This document shows positions 1,478-62,431 of a DNA stretch of 64,000 bases, in pieces. Each line of letters opens with the position of its first letter. Positions within the stretch are counted from its first letter, which is position 1. The notes beneath the pieces are model-generated. The model did not search any database. It was not told the origin of the DNA and was given only the letters and a program-made list of their open reading frames with translations. Position numbers and translations under genes: made by a program. The stretch is from Planctomycetota bacterium (GTDB lineage Bacteria; Planctomycetota; MHYJ01; JACPRB01), in contig DATLZA010000102.1 in assembly GCA_035574235.1 (NCBI GenBank), positions 27,219 through 91,218 on the forward strand, in the 5' to 3' direction.

Positions 1478-1681
1478 TCACGCCTCCGGAAGGAAGGTGA
1501 CCCGGAGCGAAACGCGGTACTCGCGGATCTTGCCGTCGACCACCTTGGCCTTGATGGCTTCGACCTCGAGCCCGGTGATGCGGCGCAGGGTCCGGGAGGC
1601 GCGCCGGAGGCCCTCCTCGATGGCGGCCTCCACGCTGCGGGGCGAGGAGGCCGTGATCTCGGTGACGCGGGAGACGGCCAT
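1478..1681 (-). CDS. dodecin (small flavin-binding protein)
   Basis: 67 aa; VTEITASSPRSVEAAIEEGLRRASRTLRRITGLEVEAIKAKVVDGKIREYRVSLRVTF aligns with the dodecin consensus (VIEIVGTSPDGVDAAIQGGLARAAQTMRAL..EV..IRG.V.DG.V..FQVTMKVGF). Confidence 0.7.
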   Translation of the reverse strand: MAVSRVTEITASSPRSVEAAIEEGLRRASRTLRRITGLEVEAIKAKVVDGKIREYRVSLRVTFLPEA

Positions 1682-3049: not shown

Positions 3050-3627
3050 GGAGAGCCGCATGGGCCGCCGCCCTCGCCGCCGCGGCGGGGGCGGCCGCCT
3101 GCGAGCCGTTCGATCCGGTCGAGGCGTCCCACGAGAGCGTTCGGCAGGAGGCCCTCCAGGCGTTCGACGAGTGGCGCCGCGCCGCCGCCGAAGGCCGCGC
3201 GGAGGAAACCTTCATGCGGATTTCCGACGGCCTGAAGTCCCAGTGGGTTTTCGCGCGGCTTCGGGAGGGCGACCCTCTCATTCGCGCCTGGCGCGGCGCG
3301 CTCGTCGGAGCGGCCCGCACGGATCTGGATCTCTGGTGGGAGCATTGCCGGAAGTATCCCCAGGAGCGCGTCGAGATTCTTCCGCAGACGGTGTTGCGGG
3401 AGCCTTCCCTGGCCAGGCTCTGGAAGGACTACTTCGCGCAGCAGGCCGCCGAGGTGAAGTTCCAGATGTCCCGGCTGGAGGTGGTGGACGCCTACGTCGA
3501 TCCCACGGGGGTGTCGATCCTGGTCCGCAACGCCTTCGGGCGGCAGGAAATGTACGAGCTGGTGCCCGAGGCCGGGATCTGGCGGATCAACCATCACCGG
3601 GTGGGGCCCGGCGTGACGGCGCGATAG
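3046..3627 (+). CDS. putative lipoprotein / secreted hypothetical protein
   Basis: ATG at 3046 overlaps the hisS stop (ATGA). Signal peptide MRRAAWAAALAAAAGAAAC with a Cys lipobox-like end; the rest has non-biased composition. Confidence 0.5.
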   Translation: MRRAAWAAALAAAAGAAACEPFDPVEASHESVRQEALQAFDEWRRAAAEGRAEETFMRISDGLKSQWVFARLREGDPLIRAWRGALVGAARTDLDLWWEHCRKYPQERVEILPQTVLREPSLARLWKDYFAQQAAEVKFQMSRLEVVDAYVDPTGVSILVRNAFGRQEMYELVPEAGIWRINHHRVGPGVTAR

Positions 3628-3630
3628 GTC

Positions 3631-4398
3631 CTACCGGCCGACTTCCAGGCGCTCCCCGAACCGCCGCGGGATGTGCTTGATGGCGAAAATCTTGTCCATC
3701 GTCTTGCGGTAGTCGTACTCCACGCGCCGGAATTCGACCACCTGAGTCTCGGGATCCCAGACGACGTAGCAGGCCCGCGTGTCGCGGTCCCGGGGCTGGC
3801 CCACGGAGCCGATGTTGACGTAGTAGCGGCGGTTGTCGGCGAGTTTCACCTTGTTGGCGAACGAGCGCGGCGGGTAAAACTTCATGTCCTCCGTGAAGAC
3901 GCCGGGTTCGTGGGTGTGGCCGCAGAAGCAGACATGCCGGATCATCGAGAAGATCTCTTCCATCTTCTCCCGGTCCTGCACGTCGTGCGGGCGCACGTAT
4001 TCCTTGGTGCGGTTGCGCGGCGAGGCGTGAAGGTAGGTGACCCCGTCCTCTTCCTTGATGTCGGGGAGGTCTCCCAGGTAGTTCCACATCCGGTGGTTCT
4101 CTTCCCGCGCCGCGGCGGCGTCGTTGAGCTGATTGCGCGTCCAGTCGATGGCCTGCGCGGCCTCGGGGTTGAAGTCCAGGGCCAGAAAAAGCAGCGCGTC
4201 CTCATGGTTTCCGCGCAGGGACCACGCCCAGTTGAAGGCGTGCTTGATCATCTCCCGCGGGTTCGGGCCGTAGCCGATGAGGTCCCCGAGGCAGTAGATC
4301 GTCTCGATCTTCTGGGCGTTGATGTCCTTGAGGACGGCTTCGAGCGCCTCGATGTTGGAATGCAGATCAGAGATCAGCGCGACCTTGTTTTTGCTCAT
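3631..4398 (-). CDS. metallophosphoesterase (calcineurin-like phosphoesterase)
   Basis: 255 aa; motifs ISDLHSN, CLGDLIGYGPNP, GNHE and GHTHEPGVF are typical of the MPP superfamily. Confidence 0.8.
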   Translation of the reverse strand: MSKNKVALISDLHSNIEALEAVLKDINAQKIETIYCLGDLIGYGPNPREMIKHAFNWAWSLRGNHEDALLFLALDFNPEAAQAIDWTRNQLNDAAAAREENHRMWNYLGDLPDIKEEDGVTYLHASPRNRTKEYVRPHDVQDREKMEEIFSMIRHVCFCGHTHEPGVFTEDMKFYPPRSFANKVKLADNRRYYVNIGSVGQPRDRDTRACYVVWDPETQVVEFRRVEYDYRKTMDKIFAIKHIPRRFGERLEVGR

Positions 4399-4453
4399 GC
4401 GCCCATAAAGTCTAACACGGACGGTGCATAAATCAAGCGGACCTCCCCGCGGG

Positions 4454-4981
4454 TCAGGGAGCGCCGAGGCCCGCGGGGGGCACCTGACGAAGGCCGAGGA
4501 TCAGTTCCACTTCGCCCTTCTCGAGGCCCGTGGCGCTGCAGATTTCGAGGAGGTCCTTGCCCGCGTCCCGAAGGGTGTATACCTGTTCGTGAAGCGGATT
4601 GGGCGCCCGGGCGGCGGAAGGGACCGCTTCGGTCCTGGCCGGCGCGGACGGGGACGTTCGTCCCAGGAGGGACTCGATCTCCTTCTGCTTGCGATCGCAC
4701 TCGGCCAGGAGCTGCGAGAGAAGCCGGATCTTCGCGTCCAGTCGGGCGATGTGTTCTCGGGAGAGATCCTGAATCTCCACGACCAGACGTTCGAGCTCCG
4801 CCCGGGCGAGCTCGCCGGCATCGGCGAAGGATCCGGGCCGGCCGCCCCGGGCGACTCCGCGCGGCCGGAAGCGAAGGAGTGCCACTCCGGCGAAGACCGC
4901 CGCGGCCAGGGCCACAAGCCAAATCGTCGGGGAGCCGCCCCCGCTCTCGGCCGCATCCGGAATCGACGTCCAGAAAGGCAT
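4454..4981 (-). CDS. hypothetical single-pass membrane protein with coiled-coil and C-terminal helix-turn-helix-like segment
   Basis: Start chosen at internal Met (MPFWTS...) preceded by TATAAT 9 nt upstream. TM helix IWLVALAAAVFAGVALL; coiled-coil region; C-terminal TLRDAGKDLLEICSATGLEKGEVELILGL. Longer alternative starts exist at 5071 and 5122. Confidence 0.4.
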   Translation of the reverse strand: MPFWTSIPDAAESGGGSPTIWLVALAAAVFAGVALLRFRPRGVARGGRPGSFADAGELARAELERLVVEIQDLSREHIARLDAKIRLLSQLLAECDRKQKEIESLLGRTSPSAPARTEAVPSAARAPNPLHEQVYTLRDAGKDLLEICSATGLEKGEVELILGLRQVPPAGLGAP

Positions 4982-4990
4982 GCCAAAGGG

Positions 4991-4996
4991 ATTATA
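4991..4996 (-). promoter_or_regulatory. -10 box TATAAT (minus strand) 9 nt upstream of ATG 4981; probable leaderless/short-leader promoter
   Basis: Minus-strand sequence cctactataatccctttggcATG. Confidence 0.3.
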
Positions 4997-5165
4997 GTAG
5001 GGAAGGACGGTCGGCGGCCACGGATTCTCCGGATGTTTCGCGGGCGTAACGGTGTCACCGTGGGGTAACATGGGGAGGGGGAGGTCTCCGAAGGGGAAGG
5101 GGGTGGTACGCGTTTTGCTCATTCGGGGAAGGGCGGCGGAAATGGCTTTTGCGGGGAGGGGTTCT

Positions 5166-5171
5166 TATAAT
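5166..5171 (+). promoter_or_regulatory. -10 box TATAAT for the pseudopilin operon
   Basis: gttcTTATAATcggagtttatcgggcggcgcgATG; divergent from the 4981 gene. Confidence 0.35.
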
Positions 5172-5192
5172 CGGAGTTTATCGGGCGGCGCG

Positions 5193-5810
5193 ATGAAGGG
5201 GGATCTTATGGGCTTGAAGCGCTCCGGGTTCACGCTGGTTGAGCTTCTCATCGTCATCGTCATCATCGGGATCATCGCGGGGCTCGTCCTGCCGGCGATC
5301 TTCAAGGCCATGTGCGCGGCCCGCGCGGGGAGCGCGGAAACTCTGATCAGCCAGCTCAGCCAGGCGATCAAGGCCTACGAGTTCGATAACGCCGTCTATC
5401 CTCCCGGCCGCGGCACGGGGAGCAAGGAGCTGGCCTACCATCTTCAGAAGAAGGGCGCCAAAGGCTCGGGCTATTTCGAGCTCAAGGGGCACCTCAACGA
5501 GGCGGGAGACATCATCAACCCCGTCTGGCCGGACGGAGAGCCGCCGAGCAATGTGCTGCACTACCGGAACAACGTGATGACTCCCGCGCAGGCGGCTCCT
5601 CCGACGCCCCAAGGGCCGGGAGCCAAGAAGGCCCCCGCCAAGCCCTCGCCTCAGCCGGCCGCGAAGCCCACCGCTCCGGGCGCACCTCCCGCGCCGCCGC
5701 CGGGGCAGCCCCCCATCTACCACAAGAATTCGTTCGACCTCTGGTGCGCCGGCTGCGACTTCTCGCCCGACAAGCCGGCCACGGTCTGGAGCATCAATAA
5801 CTGGGAATAG
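5193..5810 (+). CDS. prepilin-type N-terminal cleavage/methylation domain protein (GspG-like pseudopilin) with Pro/Ala-rich tail
   Basis: MKGDLMGLKRSG|FTLVELLIVIVIIGIIAGL prepilin leader plus hydrophobic helix with Glu at +5; C-terminal PAPKPSPQP low-complexity region. Confidence 0.75.
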   Translation: MKGDLMGLKRSGFTLVELLIVIVIIGIIAGLVLPAIFKAMCAARAGSAETLISQLSQAIKAYEFDNAVYPPGRGTGSKELAYHLQKKGAKGSGYFELKGHLNEAGDIINPVWPDGEPPSNVLHYRNNVMTPAQAAPPTPQGPGAKKAPAKPSPQPAAKPTAPGAPPAPPPGQPPIYHKNSFDLWCAGCDFSPDKPATVWSINNWE

Positions 5811-7707: not shown

Positions 7708-8598
7708 ATGCGCCCGAAGGCCGCCCCAGGCTTCACCCTGATCGAGCTTCTCATCTCCGTGGCGCTCATGGTGCTGGTGCTCGCGTCGGTGACCCTGGTT
7801 TTCTCGGGGACGACCGAGACCGTGGCCGTCCAGGGGGCGCGCATGACCGTGTACACGAACGCGCGTTACGCCATGGACGTGCTCGAGAACGATCTTCTCG
7901 GGTGCCTTCCCTTCAACCCGCCGTCGGTGGGGCCGGCCCAGGCCGCCGGACCCGGCCAGCCGCTGCAGCTTATGTCCCTCCCGCACGTTCACCAGGCGTT
8001 CTGGATGGAAAACGGCGTCCTCCGCGAGCCGGGTCAGCCTCCCGCGTACAACGTGAGCGGCGGCCACACCCACGCGGCCGGCGACCGCCTCTCCTTCCGT
8101 TCCACGACCGCCGTGGGGGACACGCTGCAGACCTGCCAGGTGACGTACGAACTCATCCCGGGGAACATGACCCTGAACGAGCAGGGGCTCGCCGTCCCGG
8201 GGGACCCCAACCGCCTCAAGACCGCCCGCACGGGCCGGGGCCTCTACACGCTCGTGCGCCGCGTGCGGGTGGCCAAGCCCGAAAGCCCCAACACCTTCAG
8301 CGAATTCGCCGTGATCAAGGACCGCGTCTCCGGGCGCGCCGTCAAGGTCCTCGACCAGGACCTCTGCCAGTACGTCGTGAGCTTCAATCTCGAGTACTAC
8401 GCGAGCAACCAGCTCTTCTCGCAGCTCGATCCCACGCCCTTCCCGAGCAGCGATCCGCTGGGCGACGGCAAGGGGGTCAACGACACGACCACGCCTTTCC
8501 GCGTCCCTTCGATCCGGGCCACGCTCGTGATCGTCGAAGACGTGGGCGAGCGCCAGGAGCGCACGATTCAGCGCGTCTTCCGGATTCCACAGGGGTAG
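7708..8598 (+). CDS. prepilin-type pseudopilin (minor pilin, GspJ-like)
   Basis: MRPKAAPG|FTLIELLISVALMVLVL. Confidence 0.7.
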   Translation: MRPKAAPGFTLIELLISVALMVLVLASVTLVFSGTTETVAVQGARMTVYTNARYAMDVLENDLLGCLPFNPPSVGPAQAAGPGQPLQLMSLPHVHQAFWMENGVLREPGQPPAYNVSGGHTHAAGDRLSFRSTTAVGDTLQTCQVTYELIPGNMTLNEQGLAVPGDPNRLKTARTGRGLYTLVRRVRVAKPESPNTFSEFAVIKDRVSGRAVKVLDQDLCQYVVSFNLEYYASNQLFSQLDPTPFPSSDPLGDGKGVNDTTTPFRVPSIRATLVIVEDVGERQERTIQRVFRIPQG

Positions 8599-8623
8599 AC
8601 CCTTCCGCGCGGCGCGGTATACT
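8596..8623 (+). promoter_or_regulatory. sigma70-like promoter TAGACC-N16-TATACT ending 6 nt before the lpxH ATG (leaderless)
   Basis: ggggTAGACCcttccgcgcggcgcggTATACTgcccgcATG. Confidence 0.4.
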
Positions 8624-8629
8624 GCCCGC

Positions 8630-9343
8630 ATGGCGCGCACGCTCTTCGTGAGCGATGTTCACCTGCGTCCGGGAGACCCCGGCGCCAACGCTTCCTTTCT
8701 CCGGTTCCTGGCGCAGGAATGCGAGGCGCTGTACATCGTCGGGGACCTCTTCGACTATTGGATCGGGCCCAAGCATCTCGAATTTCCGGACTACCGCCCC
8801 GAGCTCGAGGCGCTGCGCCGCGCGGCGGGCCGGACGCGGGTGTGCCTCGTGCCGGGCAATCGGGATTTTCTGGTGGACGCGCGTTTCGAGCGGGCGACCG
8901 GGATCGAGGTCCTCGGGGAGGAGGTCCGCCTGGACCTGGGAGGCCGGCGCGTGGCTCTGGCGCATGGAGATGCGCTCTACAACACCAATCCCAAGTATTC
9001 CGCGTACCGCGCGCTCATGCGCTCGCGCCCGGTGGGGGACCTCTGGCGGGCGGTGCCGGGGATCGTGGCCCGAAGGCTGGCGCGCGGGTACCGGCGCGTT
9101 TCGCCCCTGACGACGCCGGCCAAGGCCTGGGGCCCCGAAGGCCTGCTCGAGCGCGCCCGGCCCGTCTTCCGCGGCGGCGCGGATGTGCTCATCTGCGGGC
9201 ACATCCATCAGCCGCGCCATCTGACCGCGGAGGTGGACGGCCGGCGGCGCGAGCTTTTTGTCCTGGGCGACTGGTGCGGGGGCACGCAGGACTACGTGGA
9301 GCACGACGGCGGCGAATTCCGGATGCGCCGCTGGGAGCGCTGA
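8630..9343 (+). CDS. lpxH: UDP-2,3-diacylglucosamine diphosphatase
   Basis: MARTLFVSDVHL...GDLFDYWIG...GNRD...GHIH metallophosphatase motifs and overall LpxH-like sequence. Confidence 0.8.
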   Translation: MARTLFVSDVHLRPGDPGANASFLRFLAQECEALYIVGDLFDYWIGPKHLEFPDYRPELEALRRAAGRTRVCLVPGNRDFLVDARFERATGIEVLGEEVRLDLGGRRVALAHGDALYNTNPKYSAYRALMRSRPVGDLWRAVPGIVARRLARGYRRVSPLTTPAKAWGPEGLLERARPVFRGGADVLICGHIHQPRHLTAEVDGRRRELFVLGDWCGGTQDYVEHDGGEFRMRRWER

Positions 9344-35826: not shown

Positions 35827-35895
35827 ATGAGCATTCGGTCACGATCGGCGCCCCGTTCGAACGGGGCTTTTTTTGTAGCTGAGGAAGAACGATGA
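35827..35895 (+). CDS. candidate leader peptide uORF (22 codons) overlapping the korA start (ATGA) and spanning the terminator hairpin
   Basis: GGGAGA Shine-Dalgarno 5 nt upstream; encodes MSIRSRSAPRSNGAFFVAEEER. Confidence 0.3.
   Translation: MSIRSRSAPRSNGAFFVAEEER
35850..35874 (+). terminator. intrinsic terminator/attenuator hairpin (GCCCCGT-tcga-ACGGGGC) followed by T7, 18 nt upstream of korA
   Basis: ggcGCCCCGTTCGAACGGGGCtttttttgtag. Confidence 0.55.
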
Positions 35896-37769
35896 CGCCC
35901 CCCACTGCTGCGGACGTATCGGCCCCGCCCCGGCGGCAGGTCCTCGAAAAGGTCACCATTCGCTTCGCCGGCGACTCCGGCGACGGCATGCAGCTCATCG
36001 GCGGCCACTTCACCAACACGACGGCCGTTCTGGGCAACGACCTGGCGACCTTCCCGGACTTCCCGGCCGAGATTCGGGCCCCGGCGGGATCGCTCCCGGG
36101 CGTTTCCGGCTTCCAGATCCAGTTCGCCGCCAGCGACATTCATACCCCGGGAGACCGGCCGGACGTCCTGGTGGCGTTCAACCCCGCCGCCCTCAAGGTG
36201 AACCTCCCCGACATGGCCCCCAATTCGGTCATCATCGTCAATACCGACGCCTTCACGGAGGTCGAGCTCAAGAAGGCGGGCTACAAGACCAATCCTCTCG
36301 AGGACGGATCGCTCTCCAAATACCAGGTCTTCAAGGTTCCCATCACGGATCTCACGATCAAGGCGCTCAACTCCATCAAGTTCGCCGAGAAGGATCACCA
36401 GAAGAAGGAGCGCAACAAGAACTTCTTCGCGCTCGGGATGCTGTACTGGCTTTATAACCGCCCTCTCGAGACGACCTTCAAGGCCATCGAGCGCGAGCTG
36501 GCCAAGAAGGCGGAAGGGGCGCAGCTCGTCGCCGCCGCGCAGACGGCGCTGAAGGCCGGGCACGCCTACGCGGAGGCCACGGAGCTCTTCCGTTCCCAGT
36601 ACGTCGTCCCTCCGGCCCGCTACCAGCCCGGCACGTACCGCAACATCAACGGCAATACCGCTCTGGCGATCGGACTGGTGACGGCGTCGCGGCTGGCGGG
36701 GATTCCCCTCTTCTACGGGAGCTATCCGATCACGCCGGCCAGCTCGGTCCTCGAGGAGCTGTCGCGCCACAAGAATTTCGGGGTGCGGACGTTCCAGGCG
36801 GAGGACGAGATCGCGGCGGTGACCGCGGCGATCGGGGCCTCCTACGCCGGAGCCCTCGGCGTGACCGGCACCAGCGGCCCCGGGGTGGCCCTCAAGAGCG
36901 AGGCGATCAACCTGGCCGTGATGGTGGAGCTTCCGCTGATCATCTGCGACATTCAGCGCGGCGGGCCGTCCACGGGATTGCCGACGAAAACCGAGCAGGC
37001 GGATCTCCTGCAGGCTCTCTTCGGGCGGAACTCGGAATCGCCCGTGGCGGTCGTGGCCCCGGCGACGCCCGCGGAATGCTTCGACCTGGCGATCTTCGCC
37101 GCCCGCATCGCCATCAAGTACATGTGCCCCGTGTTCGTGCTCTCGGACGGCTACCTCGCCAACGGCGCCGAGCCCTGGAGGATCCCCGATCCCGAGCAGC
37201 TCCCCAGGATCGAGGTCCGCTTCCGGAAGGACCCCGACGGCTTCGCCCCGTACCTCCGGGACGAGGTGACGCTCGCCCGCGAGTGGGCCATTCCGGGCAC
37301 CCCCGGCCTGGAGCATCGGATCGGCGGCATCGAGAAGAGTCACATCTGGGGCAACGTCAATTACGATCCCGAAAACCACGATTTCATGTGCCGGGTGCGC
37401 GCGGCGAAAATCCAGCGCATCGTCCAGGATGTTCCCGACGTGAAGGTCCACGGACCCGAGGACGCGACCACGCTTGTCATCGGCTGGGGGTCCACGTACG
37501 GGGCCATCCGCGCGGCGGTGGAGGAGTGCCAGCAGCGGGGGCTCAAGGTGGCGCGCGCCCACCTGAGGCACCTGAATCCGTTCCCGGCCAATCTGGGCAA
37601 GGTGCTTTCCCGCTTCCGCAAGATTCTGGTGCCCGAGATGAACCTCGGCCAGCTTCTGTTCCTCCTGCGCGCGAAGTTCCTGGTGGACGCCAAGGGCATC
37701 AACAAGGTGCAGGGAAAGCCCTTCCGCGTCGCCGAGCTGATCGAGGTGATCGAAAAGGAATGCCGATAG
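35892..37769 (+). CDS. korA: 2-oxoglutarate:ferredoxin oxidoreductase subunit alpha (fused gamma/alpha, KorA)
   Basis: 625 aa; pyruvate/2-oxoacid:ferredoxin oxidoreductase domains III and I (GDSGDGMQ..., GSYPITPASS, TGTSGPGVALK). Confidence 0.85.
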   Translation: MTPPTAADVSAPPRRQVLEKVTIRFAGDSGDGMQLIGGHFTNTTAVLGNDLATFPDFPAEIRAPAGSLPGVSGFQIQFAASDIHTPGDRPDVLVAFNPAALKVNLPDMAPNSVIIVNTDAFTEVELKKAGYKTNPLEDGSLSKYQVFKVPITDLTIKALNSIKFAEKDHQKKERNKNFFALGMLYWLYNRPLETTFKAIERELAKKAEGAQLVAAAQTALKAGHAYAEATELFRSQYVVPPARYQPGTYRNINGNTALAIGLVTASRLAGIPLFYGSYPITPASSVLEELSRHKNFGVRTFQAEDEIAAVTAAIGASYAGALGVTGTSGPGVALKSEAINLAVMVELPLIICDIQRGGPSTGLPTKTEQADLLQALFGRNSESPVAVVAPATPAECFDLAIFAARIAIKYMCPVFVLSDGYLANGAEPWRIPDPEQLPRIEVRFRKDPDGFAPYLRDEVTLAREWAIPGTPGLEHRIGGIEKSHIWGNVNYDPENHDFMCRVRAAKIQRIVQDVPDVKVHGPEDATTLVIGWGSTYGAIRAAVEECQQRGLKVARAHLRHLNPFPANLGKVLSRFRKILVPEMNLGQLLFLLRAKFLVDAKGINKVQGKPFRVAELIEVIEKECR

Positions 37770-37796
37770 ATTCCCGACCCGGGAGGTGAATGAACC

Positions 37797-38834
37797 ATGG
37801 TCGCCCCCACGCAGCCCCAGACCGCGCCCCAGGCGCCCAAGTACACCAAGAAGGACTTCCAGACCGATCAGGAGGTGCGCTGGTGTCCCGGGTGCGGGGA
37901 CTACGCCATTCTCAACGCCGCCCAGCAGGTCTTCGCCCAGCTGGGACTGCCCCGCCACAACCTGGTGATGGTTTCGGGGATCGGCTGCTCCAGCCGCTTC
38001 CCGTACTACGTGAACACCTACGGATTCCATACCATCCACGGGCGCGCCCCCGCCGTGGCCACGGGCATCAAGCTGGCCAACCCCAACCTCCAGGTCTGGG
38101 TGATCACCGGCGACGGGGACGGCCTTTCGATCGGCGGCAACCACCTCATCCACGCCCTGCGCCGCAACGTCGACCTCAAGATCCTGCTCTTCAACAACCG
38201 CATCTACGGGTTGACCAAGGGGCAGTACTCCCCCACGAGCGAGCTGGGCAAGCTCAATAAGTCCGCCCCCTACGGGACCGTGGATCAGCCGATCAATCCG
38301 ATCTCGCTCGCCCTGGCCGCCGAGGCCACCTTCGTCGCGCGCTCGGTGGACGTGTACGCCAAGCACCTGATGGAAATGATCCGGCGGATGGCCGAGCACA
38401 GGGGATCGGCCTTCCTGGAGATCTACCAGAATTGCAATGTCTTCAACGACCGCGCCTTCGAGAAGTTCACCGAGAGGGACGTCCGGGACGACTGGAACGT
38501 GGTCCTGGAGCACGGCAAACCCCTTATTTTCGGAAAGAACCGCGACCGGGGGATCCGCCTCAACGGTTTGAAGCTGGAGGTCGTCAAGCTCGGCGAGAAC
38601 GGAGTCACCGAAAAGGACCTCATCGTCCACGACGAGCACAATCCGCCGCTGGCGTACCTTTTGTCCCGCATGAACTTCCCGCAGTTCCCGGAGCCCGTCG
38701 GCGTCTTCCGCAGCGACCGCCTGCCGACGCTCGAGGAGCGCGTCGAGAACCAGATCGCGGAGGTGAAGAAGAAGCAGGGCGAAGGGGACCTGCGGAAGCT
38801 GCTTTTCTCCGGCGACCTGTGGGAAGTGAAGTAG
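37797..38834 (+). CDS. korB: 2-oxoglutarate:ferredoxin oxidoreductase subunit beta (TPP-binding, KorB)
   Basis: WCPGCGDY, GIGCSSRFP and the TPP-binding GDGDG...N motif. Confidence 0.85.
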   Translation: MVAPTQPQTAPQAPKYTKKDFQTDQEVRWCPGCGDYAILNAAQQVFAQLGLPRHNLVMVSGIGCSSRFPYYVNTYGFHTIHGRAPAVATGIKLANPNLQVWVITGDGDGLSIGGNHLIHALRRNVDLKILLFNNRIYGLTKGQYSPTSELGKLNKSAPYGTVDQPINPISLALAAEATFVARSVDVYAKHLMEMIRRMAEHRGSAFLEIYQNCNVFNDRAFEKFTERDVRDDWNVVLEHGKPLIFGKNRDRGIRLNGLKLEVVKLGENGVTEKDLIVHDEHNPPLAYLLSRMNFPQFPEPVGVFRSDRLPTLEERVENQIAEVKKKQGEGDLRKLLFSGDLWEVK

Positions 38835-38847
38835 CCGGCGGCCCGGA

Positions 38848-38875
38848 TTGACAGCGCGCGCCGGGCCCCTATAAT
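38848..38875 (+). promoter_or_regulatory. perfect consensus sigma70 promoter TTGACA-N16-TATAAT; folE ATG 8 nt downstream of the -10 (leaderless)
   Basis: gaTTGACAgcgcgcgccgggccccTATAATcagggcgcATG. Confidence 0.55.
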
Positions 38876-38883
38876 CAGGGCGC

Positions 38884-39474
38884 ATGTCCGACAAGGCCGC
38901 CTTGGTCCGCCCCGAGCTCCGGGAACACGTGGCGGAGATCCTCCGCCTGCTCGGAGAGGATCCTTCCCGCGAGGGACTGGTTCGGACTCCGCTCCGGGTG
39001 GAAAAAGCGCTGCGCTACCTCACCCGCGGGTACGGCCAGGATCCCACCGAGACGCTCCGCGGAGCGGTCTTCGAGGCCAGCGACTACGACGAGATGGTGA
39101 TCGTCAAGGACATCGACGTCTTCTCGCTGTGCGAACACCATCTGCTGCCTTTCTTCGGGAAGTGCCACGTGGCGTACCTGCCGGAGCGCAAGATCGTGGG
39201 ACTTTCGAAGATCCCCCGCGTCGTGGAGGTCTACGCCCGTCGGCTTCAGATTCAGGAGCGCCTCACCACGGAGATCGCCCGCGTCATCGAGGACGCCCTG
39301 CAGCCCAAGGGGGTCGGCGTCGTCATCGAAGCGTTCCACCTGTGCGTGATGATGCGCGGCGTGGAAAAGCAGAACGCCCACATGATCACCAGCTCCATGC
39401 GCGGCCGCTTCCGCACGGACCCCAAGACCCGCGAGGAATTTCTGGATCTGATCCGTCGGTCCAAACCGCTATAA
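38884..39474 (+). CDS. folE: GTP cyclohydrolase I
   Basis: [30 protein letters not shown] motifs. Confidence 0.9.
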
Positions 39475-39485
39475 AGGAGGGTTTC

Positions 39486-40067
39486 ATGGCGACGCTCGTC
39501 GGCAAGAAGGCCCCGGCCTTCAAGACCCAGGCGTTCGTGCGCGGCGAGATCAAGGAGATCTCGCTCGACGATGCCAAGGGAAAGTGGACGGTCCTGTTCT
39601 TCTACCCGCTGGACTTCACCTTCGTCTGACCCACGGAAATCATGGCGTTCTCCGACAGGTTGTCGGAATTCCAGCAGCGCGGCGCCGAAGTGATCGCCGT
39701 GTCCACCGATTCCGTGTACTCCCACAAGGCGTGGGCCGAGGTGCCCCGCACCAAGGGCGGCATCCAGGGCGTTCAGATCCCCATCGCCGCGGATCTCACC
39801 AAGATGATTTCGCGGGACTACGGAGTTCTCGACGAGGCCAAGGGCATCGCCCTCCGGGGGACGTTCATCATCAACCCCGAGGGGACCGTGGTTTCCGAGA
39901 CCGTCAACTTCTTCCCCGTGGGACGCAACGTGGACGAGTGCCTGCGCACCATCGACGCGTTCCAGGAGGCCGCCAAGGGCGTCGTCTGCCCGGTGGGCTG
40001 GACCAAAGGGAAGGAGGCCATCAACCCGAAGGAAGCCTCCAAGTACTTCGAAAAGCTCAAGACGTAG
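39486..40067 (+). CDS. typical 2-Cys peroxiredoxin (AhpC/Prx1) with in-frame TGA at the peroxidatic position: candidate selenocysteine peroxiredoxin
   Basis: Single frame 39486..40067. ...[15 protein letters not shown]-[TGA 39627-39629][14 protein letters not shown] matches [19 protein letters not shown]. The resolving Cys is retained (VCPVGW). The ORF track splits this into 39129..39629 and 39642..40067. Confidence 0.65.
39651..39667 (+). promoter_or_regulatory. candidate bacterial SECIS hairpin (7-bp stem TCCGACA/TGTCGGA, GGU apical loop) 22 nt downstream of the in-frame UGA
   Basis: tgaCCCACGGAAATCATGGCGTTCtccgacaGGTtgtcgga. Confidence 0.35.
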
Positions 40068-40146
40068 CGGTCCTGCGACCGCCCCGGGTCTCCGCCGCCC
40101 GCGATCGCGTCGGAGCGGCGCGGGGCCCGGGGCCCGGGAGCGGCCG

Positions 40147-40971
40147 GTGAAGATCGATCTGCATACCCATACGACCCGCTCGGACGGCAATACGCCGCCG
40201 CGCGAACTGGTGCGGCTGGCGCGCGAGGCGGGAATCGGCGTCCTGGCCGTGACCGACCATGATACGGCGGAGGCGATCGAGGAATGCCTGGACGAGGGCG
40301 CCCGCCGCGGCGTCCGCGTCCTTCCCGGGATCGAGCTGTCCAGCCGGTTCGAAGGAAAGGACGTCCATGTGCTCGGCTACGGGTTCGACCCGGCGGCGCC
40401 GGCTCTGCGGGAGCGGCTGGAGGATCTTCACCGCCGACGCCGGGAACGGGTGACCCGGATCTGCGCGCGGCTGGCCGAGCTGGGGGTGGCTCTGGAGCCT
40501 CAGGAGGTTCTCCGCGAAGCGGGCGGAAAATCGGTGGGCCGCCGCCACGTGGCCCGCGCGCTGGTCCGCAAAGGCGCGGTGGGTTCCCTGGAGGAGGCGT
40601 TCGGGCGCTACCTCGGAGCCGATTCCCCGGCTTACGTTCCCGCCCACGAAATGACCCCCCGGGAGGCGCGCGACCTCGTCCACGCCCACGGGGGGCTGGC
40701 CGTCCTGGCCCACCCCGGGTTCCTCGAGGACGACGCCCTGGTCGAGCGCCTCCTGGACGAGGCGCGGTTCGACGGGATCGAGGTCTTTCATCGCTATGAT
40801 TCCGCCACGCGGCACCGGACCTACCTGGAGATGGCCCATCGGCGCAATCTTCTGGTGACCGGCGGCTCCGACTTCCACGGGGACCGGCATCCGCGCAACG
40901 CCGCGCTGGGGGAGATGACCTGTCCCCGCGAGCACTGGAAAGCCTTTGAAAAGCGGCTCCGGGCGCAGTAG
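40147..40971 (+). CDS. PHP-domain metal-dependent phosphoesterase (TrpH/YciV-like)
   Basis: GTG start; IDLHTHTTRSDG, AVTDHD, SDFHG motifs. Confidence 0.75.
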   Translation: MKIDLHTHTTRSDGNTPPRELVRLAREAGIGVLAVTDHDTAEAIEECLDEGARRGVRVLPGIELSSRFEGKDVHVLGYGFDPAAPALRERLEDLHRRRRERVTRICARLAELGVALEPQEVLREAGGKSVGRRHVARALVRKGAVGSLEEAFGRYLGADSPAYVPAHEMTPREARDLVHAHGGLAVLAHPGFLEDDALVERLLDEARFDGIEVFHRYDSATRHRTYLEMAHRRNLLVTGGSDFHGDRHPRNAALGEMTCPREHWKAFEKRLRAQ

Positions 40972-40989
40972 ACTTCTTCGGACACGCCC

Positions 40990-42795
40990 ATGACCCTCGA
41001 CCAGGACAACGACCCACTTGTCGGGAGCAAGATCGGATCGTTCCGCGTGGAGAAACGCCTGGCCGCCGGCGGCATGGGCGTCGTTTATCGGGCCCGGCAC
41101 GTCTCCCAGGATCAGGAAGTGGCCATCAAGCTTCTGGCCCCTTCGCTCGCCCAGGATCAAGAGTACGTCACCCGCTTCTTTCGGGAGGCCGGCGCCGCCG
41201 GCCAGATCGACCATCCCAACGTCGTGCGCGTCATCGACGTGGGGCGCCACGAGGACAAATACTACCTCGTCATGGAGTACGTCGAGGGGGAGACCCTCGA
41301 TCGGATCCTGGACCGGGAGCGCCGCCTGTCCCTCGAACGCGCGACCCGGCTCATCCGGGATGTGGCCGCGGGCCTGGCCGCGGCCCATCGGGCCGGAATC
41401 ATCCACCGGGACGTCAAGCCCGGCAACATCATCGTCTCCCGGGACGGGAAACCCCATCTCACCGACTTCGGCCTGGCCCGCCATACGGAGACGCGCAAGG
41501 GGCTGACGATCGAGGGGACGTTCCTGGGCACGCCGGAATACGCTTCTCCCGAGCAGGTCGAGGGTCGCCGCCTGGACCACCGGACGGACCTCTACTCCCT
41601 GGGCGTGACCTACTTCCAGCTTCTCTCCGGCACGCTCCCCTTCCTGGGGGAATCCCCCATGGAGATCGCCATCAAGCGCACCAAGGAGGAGCCGCGGCCC
41701 CTGGAGCACGCCTTCCCGGCGGCCGACCCGCGCGCCTGCGCGATCGTGCGCAAGCTTCTCCAGATGGAACCGTCCCAGCGGTACGCGAGCGCCACGGACC
41801 TCATCCGCGACCTCGACGCGATTCTCTTCGGCCAGAAACCCGAAGTCGCCCAGAAACCCGCGACCACGCGCGCCACGAAAACCCCTTCGATCACCGTGGC
41901 CGCCAAGCGCCGTCTCCGCGCCCTGACCCATTGGGGGCTCCTGTCCCTGGGAATCCTGTCGGCCTTCCTTTCCGGCGGCCTGGCCGCGCGGGGCGGCACG
42001 TTCCTGGAAACCTGGCCGGCCCGGGACGGCGACCTCGGACTGCGCATCCTTCTTCTCGTCTGCGCCCTCCTGGCCGGAGGCGGCGCGGCGTTCATCTACC
42101 GGCGCGAGTTCGCTTCGACGGGACGCATGGCCTCGCTGGCTTCGCTGGTCGCCCTGATGCTCCTGGGATCCCTGGCCGCCGGGACCCTGATCGACCGCGA
42201 TTCGGGGCAGGGCGCCGTGGCGACGCTCGGCCACACGCTGGCCGCTCTCGGAACGTCGATCGGGGCGCCCGCCAACCGCCTCGCCTTCGGGCTGCTTTTC
42301 CTTTTCGCCGCCGCCGTCGTCTCGTTCGAGCACCTGCCGGGAGCGTCCCGCGTGCTGCTCTCCCGGGTGCTCATGGTCGTGGGATACCTCCTCATCTACT
42401 CCTTCGGGACGCCCCAAGGACTGGACGGCCCCTTCCGCCAGTTCATGATCCACGCGGAATTGTCGGTGCCCCTGGCCACGGCCACGGCGCTGGCCTGCGT
42501 TTTCGGGACGTGGCTCCTGACGGGCTGGAATTTCGAGGGCGGATGGAAGGTCTTCGGCGCCGCCCTGGCCCTGGCCGGGGCGGCGGGACTTTTCGCCTTC
42601 GGAGCGCTGGTGGCCCAGCCGCTGCGTCCGGAAGGATGGCTCGCCCTCCTCGGGGAACGGTTCGATGACTTCGGGCGCGCTTTCGCCAAGCAGGGGACGG
42701 CGCTCGCCGTCGTCCTGGCCGTGGGTGTGATCGAACAATCCGTCGTGGGCGCCGGAATGCGCCGCATGGACCGGTTCTACCGCAAGAAGTTCTGA
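40990..42795 (+). CDS. serine/threonine protein kinase with C-terminal polytopic membrane domain
   Basis: GGMGVVY...AIK, HRDVKPGNI, DFGLAR, TPEYASPE Hanks-type motifs; about 300 aa of C-terminal TM helices. Confidence 0.85.
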   Translation: MTLDQDNDPLVGSKIGSFRVEKRLAAGGMGVVYRARHVSQDQEVAIKLLAPSLAQDQEYVTRFFREAGAAGQIDHPNVVRVIDVGRHEDKYYLVMEYVEGETLDRILDRERRLSLERATRLIRDVAAGLAAAHRAGIIHRDVKPGNIIVSRDGKPHLTDFGLARHTETRKGLTIEGTFLGTPEYASPEQVEGRRLDHRTDLYSLGVTYFQLLSGTLPFLGESPMEIAIKRTKEEPRPLEHAFPAADPRACAIVRKLLQMEPSQRYASATDLIRDLDAILFGQKPEVAQKPATTRATKTPSITVAAKRRLRALTHWGLLSLGILSAFLSGGLAARGGTFLETWPARDGDLGLRILLLVCALLAGGGAAFIYRREFASTGRMASLASLVALMLLGSLAAGTLIDRDSGQGAVATLGHTLAALGTSIGAPANRLAFGLLFLFAAAVVSFEHLPGASRVLLSRVLMVVGYLLIYSFGTPQGLDGPFRQFMIHAELSVPLATATALACVFGTWLLTGWNFEGGWKVFGAALALAGAAGLFAFGALVAQPLRPEGWLALLGERFDDFGRAFAKQGTALAVVLAVGVIEQSVVGAGMRRMDRFYRKKF

Positions 42796-42802
42796 TCGCC
42801 GT

Positions 42803-45598
42803 ATGCCTGCCGCTTCGGGCCTGGAACGCGACCTGCGCCGCATCGTCCGCGGGGACGTCCTCTGCGACGAGATTTCCCGCGCCCTCTACTCGACCGCCGC
42901 CTGCATCTTTCAGATCGTTCCCCAGGCGGTCGTCGTTCCCCGCGACCGACGGGATGTGGCGGCCGTCGTGAAGTACGCCGCGGAGCGGGAACTCCCGATC
43001 ACGCCGCGCGGCGCCGGCAGCGGCCTGGCCGGGCAGACCCTCGGACCCGGCATCATCCTGGACTTCTCGAAGTACATGAACCGGATCCTGGAGACGGATC
43101 AGGTCCGCTCCACCGTCCGTGTCGAGCCCGGTGTGGTCCTCGGGGATCTCAACCGGCACCTGCGGCAGTTCGGGCTCTGGTTTCCCCCGGACCCCTCCAG
43201 CGGCGATGTGGCCACCCTCGGCGGCATGATCGCCAACAACGCCGCGGGGGCCCACTCCGTCAAGTACGGCGTCACCCGGGACTACGTGGCCGGACTCGAG
43301 TGCGTCCTGGACGACGGTTCCCTCACCGGCCAGGACCGCTGGAAGGAACTGGTTCAGAAGATGGCGTCGCTCACGGCCGCCAACCGGCCCCTCATCGAGC
43401 GGTGGAAGCCGAACGTCCTGAAGAACTCGAGCGGGTACCACCTCTACGACGATCCGTTCGACATGAACCGGCTGATCGTCGGCAGCGAGGGGACGCTGGC
43501 CGTCGTCACGGAAGCGCGCCTGCGGATCGCGCGCCGGCCGACCGAACGCATCCTGCTTCGGATCACCTTCGACGACCTCGAGCCCATGGGGCGGGCCGTC
43601 CAGGCGCTTCGCCCGCTGGGCCCCAGCGCCCTCGAGGTGATCGACAAGACGATGATCGATCTCGTGCGCGGATCGCTCCTCGAATACGGCGAAGCGATGC
43701 CCGAGAACCTCCGGGCGATCCTCCTGTGCGAGTTCGACGGAGACCGCCGCGACGCCGTCGAAAAGCTGGCGGAAAAGGCCCGGACGCTCCTGGGGGAGGC
43801 GCTCGAGGTCACCGTGGCCTCCGGCGGGGATTACGAAAAGCTCTGGAAGGTCCGCAAGGCCGCATCCCCGATCCTCGACCGCCTGCAGGGGCCGCTTCGC
43901 TCGACGCGCATCATCGAGGACGCCTGCGTGCACCCGGACCGGCTGGTCGACTACATCCGGGGGCTCAAAGGGATCTTCGCCCGGCACGGCGTGGACGGCA
44001 TCGTGTTCGGTCACGCCGGCAGCGGACACGTCCACGTGAACGTCCTCATGGATCCGCGCTCGGGGGAGCATCATGCGAAGATCCGGCCCCTCTGCGAGGA
44101 CGTGGCCGATCTCGTGGCGTCCCTGCGGGGGACGCTGTCCGGGGAGCACGGGGACGGGATCCTCCGGGCGGCGTACCTGCGCAAGATCTTCGGGAAACTC
44201 TACCCGCTCTTCGAGGAAGTCAAGCAGGCGTTCGATCCCCGGAACATCCTCAATCCGGGCAAGAAGCTGGCGCCGCCGGACTTCGATTTCACGCCCTTCC
44301 TGAGGGCGTCCCGGAGGCCGGACGCGACCTATCGGCACGACTCGCCGTTCCTCGCCTGGGCGGGCGAGATCGAGCGCTGCAACGGGTGCGGCCACTGCCG
44401 GACCTACTGTCCCGTGTTCAAGGAGATTCCCGACGAGGCGGCGACGCCGCGGGGCAAGGCGGTGGCGCTCGGGGCGGCGCTCGAGGGGAAGGTGGCGGAG
44501 GATCCGGCGGCGCTGCGGCGGGTGGCGGATCTGTGCATCAACTGCAAGCTGTGCCTCGTCCTTTGTCCGTCCCGGGTGGACATTCCGGGAATGTGCCTGG
44601 AGGCCAAGGCGTTCGACGTTTCCCGCCGGGGGCTTTCCCGCCGGGACGCGCTCTTCGTGCGGGTGCGGGAGAATTCGGAGCGCGCCGCCCGCTGGGCGCC
44701 CTTTTCGAATTGGCTGGCGCCCGTGGCGGGGCCGATCCTCGGGCTCAAGCGCGCGCCGCGCTTCGTGCGGGCGGAGGTGCGTCCCACGCGCGTGTCCGAC
44801 CGCAAGGTGGTTTATTTCGCCGGCTGCTTCGCCGATTTCAACGATCCTCTGGGCGAGAAAAAGTCCACGATCGAAGTCCTCGAACGGAACGGCTTCGAGG
44901 TCGTGATTCCGGACTACCGCTGCTGCGGGCTGGCGGCGCTTTCGCTGGGCGCGCGCGAGGAGGCCGTCCGGGACGCGCGCGAGAACGTGGCGATTCTGGC
45001 GGCCACGGGGGATCTTCCGATCGTCGCCAGCGCCCCGTCCTGCGGGCTCATGCTCAAGATGGAACTCCCGCGGCTGGTTCCGGGGGACGACGCCCGCCGG
45101 GTGGCCTCCCGGGTGACGGACGTTCACGAGTTCCTCTGGAGCCTGCACCGCCGGGGGGCGCTGGACGTGAATTTCAAGCGCATCCAGTCCACGCTCCTGG
45201 TGCATCCCACGTGCCACCTGCGGGCGCTGGGGGCGGACAAGGCGGCCCGGCAGGTGCTCGGCCTGATTCCGGGGATCGAGCTCGTGGAGATTCCGGAACG
45301 CTGCTGCGGGATGGCGGGGTCGCTCGGAATGAAGGCCGCCACGTACGATCTGGCTCAGGCGATCGGGCGGCACGTGTTCGCGGACATCCGGGCGAAAAAT
45401 CCCACCCTCCTGGCGGCCTCGAACGGCACCTGCCGGTTCCATATCGGGGAGGGGGTCGGCCGCGAGGTGCTTCACACGATGACCCTTCTGCACCGCGCCT
45501 ACGGGCTTTCGCCTCTGGACGGCTTCCACAAGGTGCACGAAGGGGTGGCCATCGCCTCGCTTCGGAACCACATGGCCGCCTCCGAGCCGGACGAATAA
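42803..45598 (+). CDS. FAD-binding oxidase (GlcD-like) fused to Fe-S/CCG-domain subunit (GlcF/YdiJ-like)
   Basis: FAD-binding PCMH domain (RGAGSGLAGQ), then CNGCGHCRTYCP and CINCKLCLVLCP ferredoxin-type clusters, plus Cys-rich CCG repeats. Confidence 0.75.
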   Translation: MPAASGLERDLRRIVRGDVLCDEISRALYSTAACIFQIVPQAVVVPRDRRDVAAVVKYAAERELPITPRGAGSGLAGQTLGPGIILDFSKYMNRILETDQVRSTVRVEPGVVLGDLNRHLRQFGLWFPPDPSSGDVATLGGMIANNAAGAHSVKYGVTRDYVAGLECVLDDGSLTGQDRWKELVQKMASLTAANRPLIERWKPNVLKNSSGYHLYDDPFDMNRLIVGSEGTLAVVTEARLRIARRPTERILLRITFDDLEPMGRAVQALRPLGPSALEVIDKTMIDLVRGSLLEYGEAMPENLRAILLCEFDGDRRDAVEKLAEKARTLLGEALEVTVASGGDYEKLWKVRKAASPILDRLQGPLRSTRIIEDACVHPDRLVDYIRGLKGIFARHGVDGIVFGHAGSGHVHVNVLMDPRSGEHHAKIRPLCEDVADLVASLRGTLSGEHGDGILRAAYLRKIFGKLYPLFEEVKQAFDPRNILNPGKKLAPPDFDFTPFLRASRRPDATYRHDSPFLAWAGEIERCNGCGHCRTYCPVFKEIPDEAATPRGKAVALGAALEGKVAEDPAALRRVADLCINCKLCLVLCPSRVDIPGMCLEAKAFDVSRRGLSRRDALFVRVRENSERAARWAPFSNWLAPVAGPILGLKRAPRFVRAEVRPTRVSDRKVVYFAGCFADFNDPLGEKKSTIEVLERNGFEVVIPDYRCCGLAALSLGAREEAVRDARENVAILAATGDLPIVASAPSCGLMLKMELPRLVPGDDARRVASRVTDVHEFLWSLHRRGALDVNFKRIQSTLLVHPTCHLRALGADKAARQVLGLIPGIELVEIPERCCGMAGSLGMKAATYDLAQAIGRHVFADIRAKNPTLLAASNGTCRFHIGEGVGREVLHTMTLLHRAYGLSPLDGFHKVHEGVAIASLRNHMAASEPDE

Positions 45599-61686: not shown

Positions 61687-61744
61687 GTTCGGTCGCGCCG
61701 ATCGTGGACCGCGCCGGCGGGGTCTGTTACAATAGCCGTTCGTC

Positions 61745-62431
61745 ATGAGCCTTCCGTGGAAGGTCGGGGACAAGCTTCCGGACGCGCGGCTGGGGACGAT
61801 GGGGGGGACGTCCTGCGCGCTGCGCGATTTCCGGGGCCGGAAGGCGCTCGTCTACGTGTGGGCCTCCTGGTCCGACAGCCGGGAGGCGCTTCCGCTCCTC
61901 GAGGAATTCCACGGCAAGCACCCGGAAACGGCCGCGATTTCCATCGCCTGCGACGTGACCGGACCGGAGTATCCGATGCGGTACCTGCGCCGGGCACGCG
62001 CGACCTTCGAAATGTGGATCGACGCCACGTGCACGATCTCGCGGCGCTGGGGCGTCAAGGAGGTTCCGGTAACGGTCCTCCTCGACGAGGAAGGCTGCAT
62101 TCTGCTCCTGGGGACCGCGCTGGACCGGCCGCTTCTGGCCCGCGTGGAGGAGCTTCTGGCCCGACCCGCGGCGCGGCGCGGAGTTCCCGAGCCCAGGGTG
62201 GATACGAAGAACACCCGCATCGAAATCCTCATGCAGTCCTGCACGAACTTTCTGAGCCGGAAGCGGACGGCGGATGCGGCCGCTTCGCTTCGGAAAGCGC
62301 TCGCGGTCGATCCCGAGAACAAACTCATCGCCCCGCAGGTGTTGGTGCTCACGAACCCCGAGAAGTTCTACGAGGGGGCGATCGATCATGCCTGGCTGGC
62401 CGCTCAGCCGCCGGTGACGCCGCTCGCGTAG
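61745..62431 (+). CDS. thioredoxin-fold (TlpA/redoxin-like) protein lacking the CxxC motif
   Basis: ALVYVWASWSDSREALP aligns with redoxin WA(S/T)WCxPC, but the Cys are replaced; helical C-terminal region. Confidence 0.5.
   Translation: MSLPWKVGDKLPDARLGTMGGTSCALRDFRGRKALVYVWASWSDSREALPLLEEFHGKHPETAAISIACDVTGPEYPMRYLRRARATFEMWIDATCTISRRWGVKEVPVTVLLDEEGCILLLGTALDRPLLARVEELLARPAARRGVPEPRVDTKNTRIEILMQSCTNFLSRKRTADAAASLRKALAVDPENKLIAPQVLVLTNPEKFYEGAIDHAWLAAQPPVTPLA

Follow-up and report, generated by a model that had tools for sequence, protein, structure and literature searches.

A candidate selenocysteine-containing typical 2-Cys peroxiredoxin encoded at a conserved locus of Planctomycetota

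A peroxiredoxin (Prx) coding sequence of a Planctomycetota bacterium carries TGA at the codon where the peroxidatic cysteine would be expected, raising the question of whether the gene is broken or whether the TGA is decoded, and if so as which amino acid. The original prediction for this stretch of DNA (64,000 nucleotides, hereafter the window) held that two adjacent open reading frames form a single peroxiredoxin frame and that the product is a candidate selenocysteine (Sec) protein. Translation of the forward strand from the ATG at 39486 to the TAG stop at 40065-40067 bore out the first part of this proposal, giving one frame of 193 codons in which the TGA at 39627-39629 is the sole interruption. 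The features of the gene are as follows.

39474..39480, + strand: Shine-Dalgarno sequence AAGGAGG, 5 nt before the full-length ATG, read directly from the sequence.
39486..40067, + strand: complete coding sequence of a typical 2-Cys peroxiredoxin, 193 codons plus TAG, with a single in-frame UGA as codon 48.
39606..39629, + strand: active-site motif P41-L-D-F-T45-F-V-U48 (PxxxTxxU), from the translation; motif as defined in PMC13188914.
39627..39629, + strand: UGA at the position of the peroxidatic Cys, putative Sec codon by comparison with orthologues.
39987..39989, + strand: resolving Cys168 (GVVCPVGW), codon TGC, aligning with the part of typical 2-Cys peroxiredoxins that holds the resolving Cys.

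When a cysteine was placed at the TGA, the predicted protein matched the Pfam family AhpC-TSA (PF00578) with E=5.4e-41 and 139.8 bits (cut-off 26), and matches to Redoxin and to a 1-cysPrx_C tail were also obtained. Its best matches in the PDB were typical 2-Cys peroxiredoxins (E about 1e-64, residues 5-190), and these homologues have Cys in the column of U48, confirming the predicted coincidence of the TGA with the peroxidatic cysteine (PLDFTFV-U-PTE). The window protein aligned end to end with Leishmania mTXNPx (4kb3) and human PRDX3 (5jcg) and PRDX2 (1qmv), to which it is closer than to bacterial AhpC, and with which it shares its length, the Pro, Thr and Arg residues, the VCP context of the resolving Cys and the 1-cysPrx_C domain. 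The catalytic set comprises P41, T45 and R124 (ALRGTF), plus Cys168, the resolving cysteine that had been correctly read as retained. The peroxidatic residue is what sets the gene apart from typical 2-Cys peroxiredoxins of the Prx1/AhpC type, in which TGC or TGT stands in place of UGA. The original prediction called the flanking conservation perfect, which is true of the active-site motif but not of the protein overall, since the full-length Cys homologues returned by the protein search are at most 76 % identical to it. GGLG and YF motifs go with peroxide-sensitive eukaryote-type 2-Cys peroxiredoxins. The translation of the window gene contains KGGIQG (residues 90-95; 39753-39770) and KYF (residues 186-188; 40041-40049), which resemble these motifs, and their combination with a Sec peroxidatic residue would be of interest.

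The same TGA was found in 12 distinct orthologous coding sequences spanning 59-100 % amino-acid identity, hereafter the Sec forms: the window gene, L081, L090, L001, L169, L091, L092, L089, L093, L087, L094 and L095. L001 comes from a Planctomycetota metagenome-assembled genome (MAG) and has the TGA at the same codon as the window gene; the TGA is likewise present in L087/L088, L089-L095 and L169/L170. A look for TGC or TGT in close relatives, which the original prediction had called for, favoured the Sec interpretation: TGA is present in every fetched locus that matches the window protein at 62 % identity or more by tblastn (16/16), and the 151 occurrences of TGT or TGC at this codon are among more distant fetched loci. 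In the protein search the nearest relatives (78-83 %, and 100 %) were all truncated calls of 134 or 141 amino acids.

Cys-encoding orthologues nevertheless exist at the same chromosomal position. The Cys forms P0001, P0005, P0017, P0033 and P0023 share the gene neighbourhood of the window peroxiredoxin, and their codon is TGC. In the window this neighbourhood occupies 35892-45598 in the order KorA-KorB-FolE-Prx-PHP phosphoesterase-Ser/Thr kinase-FAD/FeS (GlcD/GlpC-like) oxidase, where KorA-KorB is a 2-oxoacid:ferredoxin oxidoreductase, and the order is conserved across both the Sec and the Cys lineages. The shared neighbourhood indicates that the Cys forms are orthologues rather than paralogues. 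A pair of Sec and Cys forms at one locus is a standard signature of bacterial selenoproteins. The two kinds of protein also differ in sequence after the active site, with FADRxA/GDF in the Cys orthologues and FSDRxS/PEF in the Sec forms, and a hairpin of the type found in the window is absent from the Cys orthologues.

This hairpin, and a zone of raised conservation around it, are located as follows.

39651..39667, + strand: SECIS-like hairpin with a 7-bp stem and a GGU loop, assessed by bSECIS criteria and by comparison.
39621..39683, + strand: stretch from codon -2 to codon +18 relative to the UGA in which the Sec clade shows raised synonymous-site conservation.

The hairpin had been described in the original prediction and was recovered as such, with arms UCCGACA (39651-39657) and UGUCGGA (39661-39667) and the apical loop GGU at 39658-39660. 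The criteria published for bacterial SECIS elements are a loop of 3-9 nt on an upper stem of 4-16 bp, a G in the first two loop positions, a UGA-loop distance of 16-37 nt and E <= -7.5 kcal/mol (PMC13188914). The window hairpin lies 21 nt (UGA to stem) and 28 nt (UGA to loop) downstream, within the bSECIS spacing, and has a folding energy of -8.4 kcal/mol for the stem-loop alone and -9.4 kcal/mol with flanking bases; it conforms to all four criteria, and A-GGU-U fits the consensus N1-G-(G/U)-N-N2.

Hairpins with all four properties were found in 9/12 Sec forms, compared with 1/137 distinct Cys forms (1/16 of the GC-rich Cys forms). The nine have stems of 7-8 bp, loops of 3-5 nt and a UGA-loop distance of 27-28 nt, and the loops of the Sec forms (GGU, GUC, GGC, CGUGU) start with G(G/U) or with NG(U). 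In L091, L094 and L095 a Ser-to-Pro change produces an A.C mismatch in the stem; here the hairpin occupies the same aligned position and has the loop GUU or GGU, and at -6.5 kcal/mol it misses the energy threshold.

A hairpin in a single sequence is weak evidence; what carries the SECIS case is that the hairpin goes with TGA and that the site is conserved more than coding alone requires. By chance, in this window of 69 % GC, a bSECIS-type hairpin is found downstream of 9 % of in-frame codons picked at random, and when the window peptide is recoded synonymously the bSECIS criteria are passed in 9.5 % of cases; the folding energy of the 64-nt region is itself ordinary (z=0.71 vs shuffles). Within the Sec clade, synonymous identity was 0.79 over codons +1 to +18 and 0.65 elsewhere (p=0.006), and the top-ranked 18-codon interval for synonymous conservation begins at the UGA, whereas in the Cys orthologues the synonymous identity of that stretch does not exceed their own average. 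Two rare codons spell the loop, AGG at 39657-39659 (4.5 % of the codons for Arg) and TTG at 39660-39662 (2.1 % of those for Leu); Ser56 is encoded by UCC in all 12 Sec forms, and the second Ser by UCG in 9/9. The synonymous conservation, the rare codons and the association with TGA support a putative RNA element at this position, and the hairpin would be expected to bind SelB.

Searches based on pairing and on family models did not add support for the hairpin. Counting of pairs in the Sec forms found 5/8 invariant and three that only lose pairing, with zero compensatory changes, as the stem is near-invariant. The RNAalifold consensus chose other weak pairings and not this hairpin. Rfam gave no SECIS match, either for the whole window at the gathering threshold or for 39560-39760 at E<=10, a search that is uninformative for bacterial SECIS elements. 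Among the Cys orthologues, L173 and L176/L177 have a hairpin about 24-44 nt past the Cys codon, where the Sec forms have the SECIS-like element. The arms differ from those of the Sec forms, and in L173 the structure is CGCCGA-CCGGA-UCGGCG (-9.4 kcal/mol), with a loop that lacks the starting G; that of L176 has -8.4 kcal/mol. These hairpins may be fossil SECIS elements or a coincidence of GC-rich sequence.

Insertion of Sec would require the organism to have selA, selB, selC and selD. Among the approximately 40 Pfam-annotated ORFs of the 64-kb window selA, selB and selD were absent, ARAGORN detected no tRNA gene, tRNA-Sec included, either in the window or in any of 20 related loci, and no Sec machinery was seen in the flanking DNA fetched for the Sec-form loci. 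The sole machinery found adjoins the Cys-form peroxiredoxin of another organism (L178, a related Planctomycetota contig), a protein 72 % identical to that of the window. The SelD of L178 scored 341 bits against TIGR00476 (cut-off 125). Its SelB-like protein, a GTPase of 651 aa, contains SelB winged-helix domains; selB is its best NCBIfam match by 40 orders of magnitude, yet with a score (187) below the cut-off of 242. Neither gene is more than about 5 kb from the peroxiredoxin gene. The closest NCBI-labelled homologue of the SelB-like protein (83 %) is a Planctomycetota MAG protein, JGI names homologues of this factor selenocysteine-specific elongation factor, and more distant proteins from Planctomycetota MAGs bear the annotation SelB. 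The SelD and SelB-like proteins of L178, together with the SelB-annotated MAG proteins, indicate that the trait exists in the phylum.

The L178 segment 3524-10582 contains, in order, the selB-like gene (3524-5479, + strand), prxQ, a ResA/TlpA-like gene (CPVC), a DsbD_N gene, a Trx-like gene, selD in its Cys form with SGGCAAK (8270-9325, - strand), a 62-aa ORF and then the Cys-form Prx. No in-frame TGA was found in the thiol-oxidoreductase and thiol peroxidase neighbours of selB and selD on this contig. In JGI, the longest contig listed is 8,074 nt both for the Cys-form peroxiredoxin P0011 (72 %) and for the SelB homologue P0125 (55 % identical to that of L178). The two may sit on one contig, in which case the linkage of SelB and Prx would be recurrent, but the equal lengths may also be a coincidence.

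Is the UGA decoded as Sec, or is it read in some other way? Of the competing explanations the one that survives best, although it is improbable, is that the UGA is read through without Sec, either by near-cognate decoding (Trp, Cys or Arg), by insertion of the Cys-tRNA(Sec) type or because the codon is reassigned throughout the lineage, the hairpin then merely slowing the ribosome or being irrelevant. The lack of Sec machinery in the window, the absence of covariation in the hairpin and the indirect nature of the Sec assignment would all be compatible with such decoding. However, more genes in the window end in TGA than in any other stop codon (19/40), which excludes reassignment of the codon, and low-level near-cognate decoding would not sustain a conserved enzyme in 12 lineages. 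Further arguments against it are the fit of the hairpin to bSECIS geometry, its G(G/U) loop keeping a constant spacing from the UGA, and the presence of SelB and SelD in a related planctomycete. To our knowledge, in line with established peroxiredoxin chemistry, Cys or Sec alone can serve as the peroxidatic residue.

A scan of the whole window for further in-frame TGAs with coding signal on both sides returned just the peroxiredoxin site and 1478-1480 (- strand). The latter was rejected as a second read-through candidate, being an ordinary stop between adjacent genes. It ends a 73-aa dodecin-like ORF (1478-1696, - strand; MAVSRVTEI...VTFLPEA), and an RDD-family gene (2-1477, - strand), whose RDD domain is C-terminal, continues in the same frame.

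A nonsense mutation that inactivated a Cys-type peroxiredoxin would also place a TGA at this codon. Such a pseudogene would agree with the way gene callers split the window gene, into ORFs of 47 and 141 amino acids, and with the failure to see Sec machinery in the window. We consider it very unlikely, because the identical TGA is kept in orthologues down to 59 % amino-acid identity, each of the 12 Sec-form genes having exactly one in-frame stop and no frameshift. Among the Sec forms dN/dS was 0.20 before the UGA and 0.25 after it, with dS about 0.7. Purifying selection acts on both halves of the gene, in frame, as is not expected of a decaying gene, and a dS of this size means that the orthologues are not near-identical copies of one recent lineage. 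The start is maintained as well, with an AGGAGG/AAGGAG-type Shine-Dalgarno sequence ahead of the full-length ATG in 12/12 Sec forms.

Production of the two ORFs as separate polypeptides, with the TGA as a true stop, would call for an internal start, and the window does offer an ATG at 39642, four codons past the TGA, from which the 141-aa call begins. This Met is present in only 3/12 Sec forms, however, being Asn or Thr in the other nine, and no Shine-Dalgarno sequence precedes it. Neither fragment would hold the peroxidatic residue, and a split peroxiredoxin therefore has as little probability as a pseudogene.

A sequencing or assembly error for TGC or TGT, although one base would suffice to turn a Cys codon into TGA, is barely conceivable given that the TGA is shared by six independent assemblies of the window's organism from different projects (L081-L086; ENA, JGI, Logan), whose coding sequences differ from that of the window by one synonymous change, by divergent orthologues, and by the 90 % cluster to which the window's fragment belongs, in which the same truncated call accounts for all 10 members, found on about 30 contigs. 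The members of this cluster are named only 'AhpC/peroxiredoxin'; one of them, P0241, sits on a contig of 923,373 bp, the longest with the truncated 141-aa call. The pseudogene and the sequencing error, which the original prediction had kept as alternatives, are thus both rejected by the orthologues, the dN/dS values and the independent assemblies.

Taken together, the TGA in 12 orthologues, the selection on the gene and the Cys orthologues at the same locus support the candidate Sec peroxiredoxin. On this comparative sequence evidence we consider it highly probable that 39486-40067 is one functional gene encoding a Sec-containing typical 2-Cys peroxiredoxin, in which the residue inserted at codon 48 would be Sec.

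The established selenoproteins of bacteria include a peroxiredoxin family (PF00578, TxxU; PMC1794560, PMC5029168, PMC2398784, PMC13188914), of which PrxU is the founding member (ref. 83 of PMC13188914). A survey in 2006 listed 12 Sec-Prx genes and inferred five changes from Cys to Sec in Prx and none in the reverse direction (PMC1794560). A survey in 2016 counted 91 genes in 78 genomes (PMC5029168), and 253 Sec-Prx reads are listed for the GOS metagenomes (PMC2398784), so that the description of Sec-Prx as rare in the original prediction does not hold. Planctomycetota are not discussed as Sec-Prx hosts in PMC1794560, PMC5029168 or PMC13188914. The window gene resembles the bacterial Sec-Prx family in its AhpC/TSA fold, in having UGA at the peroxidatic Cys within PxxxTxxU, in the existence of Cys homologues, and in a stem-loop that matches the bSECIS model and lies within the coding sequence, just 3' of the UGA. 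Compared with the SECIS of E. coli fdhF, the window hairpin is shorter and simpler and has no bulged U.

The suggestion that the protein is of the PrxU type was not sustained. Against the PrxU equivalog NF040737 it scored 180.9 bits, below the cut-off of 270, although this was still the best-scoring NCBIfam model, and the alignment starts at position 37 of the 233 in the model; the AhpC equivalog gave 175 (cut-off 272). By the NCBIfam cut-off the window protein falls outside the PrxU orthologous group, and it belongs instead to a Planctomycetota clade of typical 2-Cys peroxiredoxins of the Prx1 type. The enzyme type is therefore one already known in bacteria, and the planctomycete lineage is a new, mis-annotated member of the Sec-Prx family.

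Elsewhere in the window, 61736-62428 (+ strand) encodes a ResA/TlpA-like thioredoxin-fold protein whose best NCBIfam match is the WAxxUGC selenoprotein family, at 59 bits, far below the cut-off. It was rejected as a selenoprotein, its active site being WASWSDS, with neither Cys nor Sec nor TGA, and judging from this sequence its product is probably redox-inactive.

A working scheme for the gene can be drawn by analogy with established peroxiredoxin and bacterial Sec-insertion biochemistry. Translation would begin at the ATG at 39486, behind the strong Shine-Dalgarno sequence, and the ribosome would pause at the UGA (39627-39629), to which SelB.GTP.Sec-tRNA(Sec) would be recruited by the hairpin 21 nt downstream, the G-G/U apical loop being the expected contact for SelB. 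Sec would thereby enter as the peroxidatic residue U48. In the enzyme, U48 would reduce peroxide and become a selenenic acid, which would condense with Cys168 of the partner subunit and then be recycled by a thioredoxin-type reductant.

How the Sec and Cys forms came to occupy one locus was considered with neighbour-joining (NJ) trees, in which the short protein is poorly resolved. The Sec forms were interleaved with Cys forms: monophyly of all Sec forms was obtained in 0/100 bootstraps, and the ten main Sec forms were monophyletic in 22/100. L094 and L095 stand apart, at 59-63 % identity, and yet have the same UCCGACAGGUUGCCGGA element. The interleaving, the element of L094/L095 and the residual hairpins of Cys forms fit an ancestral Sec state. 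We put forward only tentatively, as a reading we think doubtful, that Sec was ancestral at the planctomycete Prx locus, the SECIS hairpin being inherited unchanged and Sec being replaced by Cys several times later. This would be opposite in direction to the inference for Prx in the 2006 survey (PMC1794560). If true, it would imply a small selenoproteome centred on Prx that has been lost piecemeal in the phylum; L178, where the selB-like gene and selD are clustered with a peroxiredoxin that is now a Cys form and with other thiol peroxidases, is the case cited for such loss.

The most direct consequence is for annotation. The clade comprises at least 12 distinct genes and occurs on dozens of contigs, where it is now recorded as 'AhpC' fragments of 134 or 141 amino acids and orphan ORFs of 47 amino acids; these fragments should be merged and flagged as selenoproteins. 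What is known of selenoproteins or peroxiredoxins in general is unchanged by this. The locus provides a natural series of Sec and Cys orthologues in one syntenic position, in which Sec and Cys can be compared in a typical 2-Cys peroxiredoxin and the gain and loss of a SECIS element inside a coding sequence can be followed. For the organism itself, the Sec-Prx gene would mark this lineage of Planctomycetota as a user of selenocysteine.
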